Assembly: GCA_963693365.1 (NCBI GenBank)
Contig: CAVNZM010000017.1
Coordinates: 2,843,527 to 2,907,526, forward strand
DNA length: 64,000 bases
Direction of reading: 5' to 3'
DNA from: Amoebidium appalachense
Taxonomy: Eukaryota > Protista > Ichthyosporea
The notes under the pieces were generated by a model. The model ran no database searches, had not been told where the DNA came from, and was given only the letters and a program-made list of their open reading frames with translations. Numbering within the stretch: position 1 is the stretch's first letter; each line of letters begins with the position of its first letter. This document shows positions 1-36,600 of the stretch, piece after piece. The translations under genes and the position numbers were made by a program.

Positions 1-3000
1 TAATCTTGCACAGCTCCCTCGTGTCATGTGTCTTCCTCTCCTTTGACCTCAGCAGGAGGGAATATCTCTCCCTGAAGTCATCGTAAAAGTTTCTGGACGG
101 GTAGCCGGCAGCACTGATGCGGATGGTCTCAAGGACACCGCATGCACGCAGCTGCTCAATCATGTTCTTCTCTTCAAACAGGAACGGCTGTGTGTGTGTG
201 TGTGTGTGTGTGTGTGTGTGTGTGTGTGTGTGTGTGTGTGTGTGTGTGTGTGTGTGTGTTGGGCCGGAAGGGGGGATTGAATTGGAGGTGGGGGGGGGGG
301 GGGGGGGGGGGGGGGGGGAGAGGGGGAGTGTGTGTGTGGGGTGGGGTGCGGGGCAGGGAGAGACAGTGTGTGTGTGTGTGTGTGTGTGTGTGTGTGTAAA
401 TGTTGTGTAAACCGGTGGTCAGTGTTCATCTTGCATATTTAATATGCAATAACAGGTGCCTGTACAGGTACTTGATGTTCTATACCCATTCCACCAGCAA
501 GTCTCTCTGCCCCCTCCCCCCCCCCCCCCCCCCCCCCCCCCCCCACACACACACAAATACACTCGCCCACCTCAAAGCACACACCCACACCCACACCCGT
601 CCACCCCAAAATACACACACGCACACACACACCTACACACAGGCGCGAACACACATCCCTTCCCCCCCCCCCCCCCCCCCCCAAAAAAAACACAACAATC
701 TCCCCCCCCTCCCCCAACACACACACACACACACACACCCATCCAAAACACACAAATACCCTTTTCCCCGCCCCACAAATCCCCCCTCCCCCCCCCCCCC
801 TCCCCCCTCCCCACATCCAACACCTCCCCCCCCCCCCCCCCCCCCCCCCCCAAACACACACCCACACACACATACACACATCTCCTTTGCCTTTGTTGGG
901 CTTAAGGCACCTGCAGTAGTGTGGGGTAGTCGAATACACCCATCCACTCACCTACACACGCAACCCTTCCCCCCCAACACACACACACACACACACACAC
1001 ACACAACACACACACACACACACATGCACGCACGCACCTCCTTAGCCTGGTTGGGCTTGAGACACCTGCAGTAATGCGGTGTAGTCGAGTAGATCGTCTC
1101 CATGAGTGCCTGCAGAGACTGTTTGAACTGCGACCCAACAGTGGCAGCCTTGGCCTTGGCTGTGCCCTGCCCACCCGCTCCGCCCTTTTGCGATGCCTCG
1201 TGTTGCTTGGCTACGATCGAACTGGGACCGAAGAGCTCTTGAACGAACGTGACTTTGCTCTTGACTAGAAGGTCCGTCTGCGGGGAGGAAGAGGGGGCGG
1301 AGAAGGGAGGTGGAGGCGGGGGGGCAGGCGGGGACGGGGGGAGGGGGGGGGGAGGGGGGGGAAAGGGGGGAGGACAGTGGGGATGGGTAGGGGGATTAGG
1401 GGGGGGGGGGGGGGGGGGGGGGGGGGGGGTAGAAAGTGTTACACAAGTATACAGTACACATTGGTAACAGACAACACAAGTCAGAATTTGTAAACATGCG
1501 GAGATTGTATGCATCAGAAAGTAACCCGCATGGTTATTGGTGGTGGGGGGGGGGGGGGGGGGGGGGGGGGGGTTGAAGCTCAGGGTAGAAGGGTGTGTGT
1601 GTGTTGGAGGTGGGGGGGGGGGGGGGGGGGGGGGGGGGAGGGTAGAGTTGGTAGAAATGCGTGGTCAAAAGTTCTCGAGCAATAACCCCTGGTTGAACAA
1701 TACCACTTCTTATACAATTAACCAAGAAAGTCTACCGTCGCTCTTACACGATTGGTCCATTACATGCACCGCACCACAAACCCCTACCAGTTCCTCAACA
1801 ACAGCATAGACAACTCAACCGAAAAAGGCTACCATTCCCACCACATGATTGGCCCATCACATACCACACCAGCACAAACACACACCAGTTCCTCTACAAC
1901 GGCATAAACAAGTTAACCAAAAAGCCCACCATTCCTGCCACAATAACCAAACAAGGCTACCATTCCCGCCACACGATTGGTCCATTACATGCCCCACACC
2001 ACACCACACCACAAATACCTACCAACTCCTCTGCAACGGCATCCTTGTTCTTATCCAAAAATCCGTCCACCGTGTACGTGACCTTTGCAGCGAAATGGTG
2101 AATCACGAACAGGTTGTTCCCGAACCTCGGGAGCGAGAAATGGTCCTTTTTCCCGTGATTTGATTTCAATTTTTCCAAAAACGACTGGTCGGCGCCCTTC
2201 GGGAGACGGGCCTCCTCGTCGAGGAGAGACAAAACCCCCAATTTGTCTTCGATAAGGTCGATGCACGGTTGGTTGTCGTAAAAGTCGATGAACGACCACT
2301 GAATCTGCTCCCGGATATATTCCTGGGTTGGGGGGGAAACAGGGCGGAGGATGGTGTGAGATGGTGTGTGTTGATGTTACAATATATGCAATAATATGAT
2401 GTACGAGCAATGGGATAACTGTAAAGATATGATGGTGTCGAAAATGCAAATGCACAGAGTAGATATATCCAACGGAAAAATATCTCCGGCTTCAATCCGA
2501 GTGATAGGCACCGGACACAACCCATCAGGCCACGTGCAGTCATCAATTTGCACTCCAACAGATATACTATCGACGAGATAACCCTACATCCCGCTCCAAC
2601 ATGAGAGCGCAGGACGTAACCCATCCAAAAAGGGCAGTCACAGGGACTTGCACTCGCGAAAACCAAGATATACAACGGACGAGATAGACAACCCTACCTC
2701 CTGCTCCAGCTTGAACACGTGCTGGTTGAATTGCTGCTGCAGCTTCTCGTTTGCGTAATTGATGCAAAACTGCTCAAAACTGTTGGTGTCGAACAGCTCG
2801 AACCCGTAGATGTCCAGCACACCAATGAACCGGCCCTTGTGGTTGCCGTTCTGTGTGGGTGTTTGTGTGTGTGTGTGTGTGGGGGGGGGGGGGGGGGGGG
2901 GGGGGGAGGTGTGTGTGTGTGTGTGTTTGTGTGTGTGTGTTTGTGTGTGTGTGTGTGTGTGCGTGCTTGCGTGGATGTACGTGTGTGTGTGTGTGTGTGT

Positions 3001-33600: not shown

Positions 33601-36600
33601 GATAAAAGGGGATGTACGGAGTCAGGGATATAATGTGAAACAGGGATTTGCTAGGTGAGAGATAAAAGAGTAAAACAGGCACATACTAGTCTAGGAATAC
33701 CAAGTGTGAAACAGATATATTCTAGGTGAAGGATACCTAGTGTGAAACAGATATATTCTAGGTAGAGAATACCTAGTGTGAAACAGATATATTCTAGGTG
33801 AAGGATACCTAGTGTGAAACAGGGATATGCTTGGAGAAGGATATTCTGTGAGGCAGGGATACACTAGGTGAAGGATATTCTGTGAAGCAGGGACACACTG
33901 TACTGAGGTATATGCTAGGGCAGGGATATTTGATGCAACAGGGATATCTATAAAATAGGGTCATGGATACACCGGGAAACAGGGATATGCTGGATCAGGG
34001 ATATACTATTAGATCCGAACATAATGGTTTTGCTAACGTAGTGTGATATTTTGTTTTTGCTCTTTACACTTTCATACCCCCCCCCCCCCCCCCCCCCCCT
34101 TCTCCCGGGGTTCTTTTCTTCCATCAGACTCACCTTAGCAAGCTCCACAATAGCCTCTCCAGAATCTTTAAAGACGCCCAAAATAAGGGCCAAGCTGTGG
34201 GTCGATTAAAGAAACGATGTGTCAGTTGGTGTTGGATATATGACATCCATGCATATGTGTATAATATACATCCATGCAATCACGTAGAATACATATGCAT
34301 ACATATATGTACATAATATGCCTGCGTGGTGATAAACCACACATCATGAAAGATGGGGAGATTTTGTGGCCGAGATTATGTAAAATTATGCCCAGTTGGT
34401 ATTATTGTGTGAAGAAATTAGATATTCGCGAAACACACACAAAAAAAGAGTCGAGGTGGAAGGTAAAATGGGCGGAAGTGGGAACGGGAGGAGAAGGGAG
34501 GGGAAGAAGGTAGGTGGTGGGTGCGTGTGTGTGTGTGGGGAGGGCCGAGGACGGGAGGGGGGGGGAGGAGGAGGGGGGGGGGGGGGGGGGGGATGGCCAA
34601 CATGTGTGCGACTCCGCCAGGTGCACACACGGCCCCATATGTACCAACACCAACACCCACTCCCCCCCCCCCCCCCCCCCCCCCCTCCCCCTTCCCCTCT
34701 CCCACACACACACATACCCAGCTCACCTGCACCTCCGCTCAACACACATACACACGGCTACTCATCCAGCCCTACATACACACACCAACACCCTCCCCCC
34801 CCCCCCCCCCCCCCACCCCAGGCTCTCCTCCCCCATCCCGCCTCCCCATGCAAATGCATACAAACACACACACACACACACGCTCGCACACACACACACA
34901 CACACACACACACACACACACACACACACACACACACACACACACACACCCACACCCACACCCAACCACCCACCCACCCACCCGCCCACACACACCCACA
35001 CACCCACATACACACACACACACACACACACACACACACACACACACACACACACACACACACACACACACCACAGCTCCACGCGCAGTACAGCTACTGT
35101 GTTTTGGTCCTCGCTGTTTGGCCACCCAGCTCCCAGCACCGTGTAGAGGAAGGGCTCCTGTAAGCAGGAAAACACAGTTAGCGGCTCATTTTTATTTTTT
35201 TAATTTTGATTTTAATAATTATCATAAGCTTGCATTGTATGATCATGTGGCTCAACAGAAGAAATATCCGAGCCAGAATCATGCGAAAAAATTTAACTCT
35301 GGATATTAGATCACACGAAATCTTTGTGTGAAGTGTAGCTGTGACTTGGTATGCATAACGAGTTTGAGCCGAGCCTGAGACGGGCAAAGAGGGACAGTGG
35401 GACAGAGATTTTCGGGAATAGGGGGGGGAAGGGATGGGATGAGGTTGGAGGTGGGGTGTGGAGGAGGAGGAGGAGGGGAGAGGGGGGGGGGGGGGGGGGG
35501 GGGGGGGGGGGGAAGGAAGAAAGAGAGAGAGAAAGACGGGGGGTGTTGGGGAAGGGGGGAGGGGGGGTTGCACACCTTTGCGAGACAATATGCTCTGCTT
35601 CTGATAGTTTCGAGAGAGTCCCCACTCACTGCATTTCGGCGTAGTTGGCTTTGCTGTGTACACGAGGGGGAAGAGAGGGGGGGTAAGGGTGGGGGGGGGG
35701 GGGGGGGGGAGGGGGGGGGGGAGGGGGGGGGGGGAGGGGAAGGAGGGGATTAGTAAGAAGGGAGAGAAGATGGAAGGAAAATGTGAACAGAAAATAAGTG
35801 GTGCCTTTCATATCTCTCTCGCTGTTGTGCACGCATGTCCCCCCCCCCCCCCCCCCCCCACAACTCCCCGCACGCACACAATCCCAGCCCCCCCCCCCCC
35901 CCCCCCCCCCCCCAACCCTAAATGCACACACATACATACACGCACACACATGCACACACCTGTCCACACCCACCCGGACCCACATTCACCCATATCCCCA
36001 CCCACCCATACCCCCTTCCTCCCCCCCCCCCCCCCCTCCCCCCCACCAACACACACACACATCCCCCCCTCCCCCCGCCAAAAAAAAGCCCACACCCACA
36101 CACACACACACACACACACACACACACACACACACACACACACACACACACACACACACACACACACACACACACACACACACACACACACACACACACA
36201 CACACACACACACACACACACACACACACACACACACACACACACACACACACACACACACACACCTCTGCAGACAGCAAACCGCACGAGTGCTCCACTA
36301 TCCTCTCACAGAACCTCATGGTACGTGGGGGGCTGTCATGTTTCTCAAATGCCTTCTAGACCCCCCCCCCCCCCCCCCCCCCACACACACACATACACAC
36401 ACACTCCCCTCTCTCTTTAACACAGGCAAACACAGAAACACCTCCCTCCTCCCCCCACCCAAAAACAAAACAGAACAAAGAAGAAAACAAAACAAAACAA
36501 AAGACACACACGCACACACACACACACCTCAGCAGAAAGCAAACCGCACGAGTACTCCACCATCCTCTCATAGAATCTCATAGTGCGTGGTGGGCTGTCA

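Follow-up and report, generated by a model that had tools for sequence, protein, structure and literature searches.

Duplication of the junction between an exon and the intron that follows it is a known kind of event. The described systems closest to the one considered here are the tandem duplication at exon 8 of human FGG (PMC9052919), the minisatellite in intron 7 of human F7 (PMC1557585), in which the duplicated donor sites are silent, intron gain by tandem duplication (Rogers), and mutually exclusive tandem exons. Here, we describe copies of exon ends within the introns of two genes in a 64,000-nucleotide (nt) stretch of the genome of the ichthyosporean Amoebidium appalachense (contig CAVNZM010000017.1, positions 2,843,527 to 2,907,526), referred to below as the window. 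Copies of the 3' end of the upstream exon, in the same orientation and termed here 'echoes', occur in 6 of the 35 modelled introns, 110–262 nt downstream of their source. These echoes are a real feature, and they represent donor-junction copying at unusually high density. In our preferred reading, to which we assign a probability of roughly 0.57, they are ordinary short tandem duplications across exon–intron junctions that have decayed silently, and their excess of synonymous differences is partly built in and partly due to chance.

Exon-end copies and their anatomy

The DNA of the window is eukaryotic, with abundant G, C, GT and AC tracts. It contains two multi-exon genes, both on the minus strand, of which one is a myosin V gene and the other is called the second gene below; their exon models were built from reading frames and splice dinucleotides. 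Each exon end was compared with its own adjacent intron, the null being formed by all other introns on both strands. When only exon sequence was used, the null maximum was exceeded in 5 of 35 donor tests (scores of 71, 32, 80, 42 and 132, versus 24–26). The sixth echo, E3, scored below its null by this measure (24 versus 27), and was detected only when the start of the intron was included (41.5; best of 500 shuffles, 6). None of the 35 acceptor tests exceeded the null maximum and one, A1, tied with it; this copy had been overlooked in the initial annotation. The echoes and their source exons, with synonymous and non-synonymous differences in that order, are as follows.

1038..1277, minus strand: myosin V exon, source of E1
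882..936, minus strand: E1, 18-codon echo, 7:1, with a 1-nt insertion, donor GT changed to AT, and an internal CAG|GT at 911/910
2023..2322, minus strand: myosin V exon, source of E2
1711..1906, minus strand: E2a and E2b, two tandem units, each of ~21 nt of exon end and ~77 nt of intron start, GT retained; exon parts 1886–1906 (E2a, 2:2) and 1788–1808 (E2b, 4:2)
2698..2850, minus strand: myosin V exon, source of E3
2500..2605, minus strand: E3, head-to-tail unit of 18 nt of exon end (2588–2605) and ~85 nt of intron start, 1:4, GT retained
3983..4177, minus strand: myosin V exon, source of E4
3779..3844, minus strand: E4, 22-codon echo, 4.5:8.5, GT retained
33507..33593, minus strand: second-gene exon, source of E5
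33297..33323, minus strand: E5, 9-codon echo, 2:1, GT retained
36528..36727, minus strand: second-gene exon, source of E6
36266..36360, minus strand: E6, 95-nt echo, 88% identity, 7:4, GT retained
28280..28330, minus strand: A1, acceptor-side copy of the start of exon 28167–28248, period 55, AG changed to GG, 37 of 52 columns matching, 0:3

The copied unit consists of exon end, donor and intron start, and the distances from donor to donor are 156 nt for E1, 137 for E2a, 235 for E2b, 110 for E3, 204 for E4, 210 for E5 and 262 for E6. The initial annotation had reported such copies at six junctions, ~100–300 bp downstream, and this is borne out. The donor GT survives in six of the seven donor-side copies, whereas the sole acceptor-side copy is without its AG. 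In E2 and E3, the sequence after the echo matches the spacer separating exon from echo at 82–84% identity (scores of 44 and 41.5, versus shuffle maxima of 3.5 and 6), and these two are demonstrably head-to-tail tandem duplications. The four myosin V echoes lie in four consecutive introns (882–3844), with none in the first six, a possible local hot spot.

Local direct repeats were also scanned for at offsets of 40–600, with repeats masked and events grouped by eye. The two genes yielded 61 matches, versus 3 at control offsets, that resolve into 15 local duplication events: six span donors, one spans an acceptor, eight lie wholly within introns and none lies within exons. The same scan of 11 kilobases of unmasked intergenic DNA returned two weak matches. 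Two of the intron-only events are well preserved:

3258..3639: tandem duplication, period 201, 99% identity, in one of the four echo-bearing myosin V introns
8425..8644: local duplication, period 165, 95% identity

Among surviving events, ~1/4 would be expected by hand estimate to span a donor, so that the observed 6 of 15 is no clear enrichment (P ~0.1–0.2). A frequency no higher than that of random local duplication, which the initial annotation had named as telling against its own reading, is thus roughly what the window shows.

Two DNA sequencing runs bear on whether the echoes exist in the genome at all. X1 and X2 are two samples from one study, of which X1 is possibly the source sample, and the comparison covers E1–E3. 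Contigs of X1 cover all three with no differences, and one contig of X2 spans 1653–2860, with E2a, E2b, E3 and both flanking exons. Over these ~1,200 nt, X2 differs from the window by three substitutions and one gap (~99.7% identity), and the sole exonic change is synonymous. That the assembly merged two haplotypes, an artefact raised in the initial annotation, is very improbable. The introns are rich in repeats, E1 is not joined to its own exon by any contig, an AC tract lying between them, and X1 may be no independent witness, but the X2 contig holds two complete pairs of exon and echo.

Codon differences and splice signals

The initial annotation had held that the echoes diverge mainly at synonymous positions. 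This describes E1 and E6 and fails for E3 and E4; in E2 and E5, with 7 and 9 codons, it holds only weakly. Across the set, synonymous differences make up 25.5 of 46. This pool comprises the six donor echoes and omits E2a, which shares changes with E2b. The hand counts behind the claim were correct within their range (6:0 over 14 codons in E1; 7:3 over 30 in E6), but neither covers its whole echo: in E1, the four codons that follow bring a further synonymous and a non-synonymous change, the 1-nt insertion and the loss of GT (ATGTGT), and the codon preceding the counted part of E6 carries TAT>TAG, a stop.

The accompanying premise, that a neutral duplicate should show mostly non-synonymous differences, was mistaken, because the working exon itself goes on gaining synonymous changes, and much of the excess follows from this. 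To set the null, the mutation spectrum was taken from 12 non-coding duplicate pairs in the window (115 transitions and 98 transversions in 2,760 sites, with CpG transitions raised 3.4-fold). A frozen exon and a neutral echo would yield 11.6 synonymous differences of 46; a constrained exon and a neutral echo yield 16.1–16.4, or 17.8–19.2 by a count without saturation. The proper null is thus raised from 11.6 to ~16. The residual excess persists with the 3.4-fold CpG decay modelled; gene-body CG methylation is reported from a related ichthyosporean (PMC11244446), and is given here as background only. We also weighed gene conversion between exon and echo and dismissed it by reasoning, since synonymous differences are what it would erase first.

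The strength of the residual depends on which copies are counted. Against the corrected null, P is 0.005 with A1 included, 0.035 without E1, and 0.083 without E1 but with A1; the corresponding no-saturation values are 0.026–0.062 with A1 and 0.10–0.19 without E1. When both E1 and E6 are left out (E3, E4, E5 and E2b), 11.5 of 27 differences are synonymous, versus 9.7 expected (P 0.22). The window was picked owing to E1 and E6, and this choice inflates the significance of all of these P values to an unknown degree. The codon bias beyond the corrected null is modest, unexplained, and comes mainly from one 18-codon echo, E1. In the myosin V echoes, amino acid changes fall at positions where the exon and P0002, a protein of Ichthyophonus, have the same residue (F, Y, A and F in E4; F, K, Q and E in E3; Q in E1), and these changes therefore arose on the echo.

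Our preferred reading, ordinary junction duplication followed by silent decay, would run as follows. A tandem duplication of ~110–260 nt, arising perhaps by slippage or template switching beside the G, C, GT and AC tracts, would happen to span an exon–intron junction, with the echo as its second unit. A donor-side copy would be tolerated, the upstream donor being used first and the copy having no good acceptor; an acceptor-side copy would probably be harmful unless its AG were lost. The echo would then decay neutrally within the intron, as the codon counts of E3 and E4, the stop in E6, and the insertion and donor loss in E1 suggest. The leftover ~6–9 synonymous differences, mostly in E1 and E6, would be chance in a window chosen for its pattern, and this is the weakest step. 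If this reading is right, the echoes show, with 6 of 35 donors affected, how often a repeat-rich ichthyosporean genome copies its splice junctions and tolerates the copies, and such copied junctions are the raw material of intron-gain and exon-duplication models.

Several results weigh against it. For the six donor echoes, 25.5 synonymous differences versus 16.4 under the corrected null gives P 0.0017 (0.0008–0.0026 by a second calculation), and the no-saturation count gives P 0.011–0.031; E1 alone gives P 0.003–0.01. A constraint on the echo branch of ~0.35 of neutral improves on the neutral fit by 4.2 log units. Among E1–E5, head-to-tail continuity is demonstrated for E2 and E3 only, the scores of E1, E4 and E5, whose spacers are repeat tracts, falling within the shuffle range. 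The 6:1 asymmetry between donor and acceptor copies falls short of significance (binomial P 0.125, by hand). The echo donors are all in phase 0 (6 of 6), versus 20 of 34 introns (hand hypergeometric P ~0.03, post hoc). And the junction duplication of human FGG, unlike that of F7, is not silent (PMC9052919).

These points leave some room, which we put well short of even odds, for a different proposition: that about 1 in 6 donors carries a fossil exon end that was once under protein selection, whether by exchange with a diverged allele or by temporary splicing. The residual (25.5 versus ~16–19) and the best-fit constraint of ~0.35 keep the past coding constraint suggested by the initial annotation in play; that fit is driven by E1 and E6, with E3 and E4 behaving as if neutral, and the sources proposed for the constraint found no positive support. 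Were the proposition true, coding alleles of former times or foreign origin could be read from introns as from an archive, with exon-end turnover caught in action; were the synonymous residual true genome-wide, a single genome would suffice to measure transient use of exons or an otherwise hidden exchange of alleles.

One such source, which we consider unlikely, is that the two units descend from different diverged coding versions, brought together when a diverged allele or lineage took part in unequal exchange or gene conversion, and that neutral decay came afterwards. E1 (7:1) and E6 (7:4) would be explained in this way, and so would E3 and E4 if decay came later. With both branches at a constraint of 0.25, it predicts 23.9 synonymous differences, which fits the pooled count; strong constraint, with both at 0.1, over-predicts (31.7, P 0.023). 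It agrees, too, with the third positions of the echoes, which are no more AT-rich than those of the exons. However, no paralog or allele matching the echoes at ≥80% over E1–E3 was found in X1 or X2, from which some records had been filtered out, and the paralog pieces in these runs are restricted to 2698–2841. The divergence of X2 (0.3%) is also far below that of E1, in which 7 of 18 third positions differ. No present paralog or allele, therefore, accounts for E1, and in these runs the diverged template (allele, homeolog or paralog) initially put forward finds no support; E2 and E3 are plain head-to-tail units.

The other source, which we regard as somewhat less probable still, is that some echoes were temporarily spliced into messenger RNA, either as a cassette entered through a cryptic acceptor or as the intermediate of a new intron with an internal AG|GT, and were selected as protein before dying. 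There are precedents: the FGG duplication gives rise to a transcript through a cryptic acceptor inside the duplicate (PMC9052919), and a new intron in potato derives from a duplication that crosses a junction (PMC4974935). The phase 0 of the six echo donors suits this idea, as does E6, in which the TAG created by TAT>TAG supplies an in-frame AG, 90 nt ahead of the retained GT. In E1, the internal CAG|GT is common to echo and exon, and the echo copy has an acceptor score of 9.3, above 57% of true acceptors. The remaining acceptors are poor. The in-frame AGs ahead of E1–E5 fall in the lowest 11% of the 35 true acceptors on a small matrix, which tells against the earlier suggestion that these echoes are former or alternative exon ends; 33 of the 35 true acceptors are CAG. 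The in-frame AG of E6 is not one of the three best AGs there, all of which score –1 or lower. Inclusion of a myosin echo would duplicate conserved motor-domain residues, and four of the seven synonymous changes in E1 lie 5' of the internal AG, in what would have been intron.

A present role for the echoes, as recursive or back-up donor sites, is improbable. The donors of E2a, E2b, E5 and E6 score 8.6–11.4, versus a true-donor median of 7.1, and match or exceed it, and E1 has its strong AG|GT. But a strong AG|GT in the exon part occurs in only this one of the seven copies, and such a role does not predict a bias by codon position. Recursive splicing usually takes place in longer introns than those of the window, which measure ~300–1,800 nt.

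The two genes and their repeats

The genes and their models are these.

47..11619, minus strand: first 11 modelled exons of the myosin V gene, which continues past the start of the window; 10 GT-AG introns, modelled frame free of stops
24693..46420, minus strand: second gene, 26 modelled exons, the start of the first only provisional; exons 2–26 give 1148 stop-free codons

The myosin V gene matches the Pfam family Myosin_head (E 2.4e-36). Its closest match is P0002, with 86% identity over one exon, and the next-best are ichthyosporean proteins at 70%, matches from which the source would be placed among ichthyosporeans near Ichthyophonus. Long introns and a high rate of intron gain are reported for Ichthyophonus (PMC5560861). 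Three loci from a metagenome scan, at 48–53% identity, were too distant to polarize codons and were left unused. Runs X9 and X10, possibly of RNA, from which records had likewise been filtered, contain no contig of the myosin V transcript and only paralog pieces, and are uninformative on splicing; a single 130-nt piece of X10 falls on 1840–1969, in the myosin V region. For the second gene, too, no contig of a transcript was seen. Pfam gave no match for any of the six second-gene exons tried, and a protein search with one exon, covering 34 candidates of 199–2000 residues, turned up no relative. A cysteine-rich segment of this gene (43740–44079, minus strand) resembles clusters of the RIN13 N-terminal-type cysteine domain, a lead only (Atlas feature score 0.93).

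In the 35 introns (188–44873), G/GT tracts favour the 5' halves and C/AC tracts the 3' halves: 2078 versus 1140 nt in the former, and 632 versus 2118 nt in the latter. Both trends hold in 10 of the 35, and the polarity of 16 of the 35 5' halves is reversed. The bridged introns of fish have a similar pairing of tracts (PMC4691745), with polarity opposite to that of the window. Many acceptors are preceded by AC repeats rather than by pyrimidines. In the second gene, minisatellite arrays with units of ~36 and ~20 nt (33597–34012 and 40086–40439) end just 5' of acceptors. Introns of both genes harbor a small repeat family, often beside G tracts and possibly a short mobile element (25599–25897, 42169–42467, 40443–40664, 6898–7028 and 11338–11464); two of its members share 98.7% identity across 299 nt. 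The first myosin V intron contains a 197-nt near-palindrome (10836–11242), and its arm recurs nearby in both direct and inverted orientation.

Between and beyond the genes, a 579-nt direct duplication (97% identity, period 1005) occupies 21386–22961, and nested long inverted repeats of 70–88% identity, perhaps a decayed fold-back or large transposon, occupy 50134–61073 (50544–52467 paired with 59667–61073, and 52468–53753 with 55240–56566). A repeat-free region at ~19530–20805, plus strand, is a candidate, judged by eye, for an intron-less membrane-protein gene.

Comparison with described systems

Our literature search, in which subscription papers were thinly covered, found no report of recurrent, synonymous-rich copies of exon ends in introns. 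Mutually exclusive tandem exons resemble the window in placing homologous exon sequences side by side, synonymous-rich in E1 and E6. They differ in that the echoes comprise only 18–95 nt of the 3' end of an exon and have no credible acceptor; a cassette or mutually exclusive exon would have an in-frame acceptor of its own, and the in-frame AGs here score poorly. For a captured allele or paralog, a template elsewhere would be expected, and none was found at ≥80% over E1–E3 in the two DNA runs. Intron gain by tandem duplication shares with the window a short intragenic duplication that crosses or contains splice signals, and a strong AG|GT lies within E1, alone among the seven copies. In the window, by contrast, the upstream exon end is intact, agrees with the outgroup protein and retains a donor of its own, and no new intron is shown.

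An adjacent direct copy of the exon end, followed by a donor, is the arrangement found in F7 and FGG, and it is the arrangement found here. In the F7 minisatellite, the first unit spans the donor, the upstream site is chosen, and the downstream donors are silent (PMC1557585). That repeat is mammalian, homogeneous and 37 nt long, and its silence is experimental, whereas the units in the window are longer and diverged, and their silence is inferred. In FGG, exon end, GT and intron start are repeated in tandem, over 403 nt as against 110–262 nt in the window (PMC9052919). The FGG duplication is one recent disease allele that disturbs splicing; the copies in the window are old, diverged and apparently tolerated, and they accompany 6 of 35 donors.

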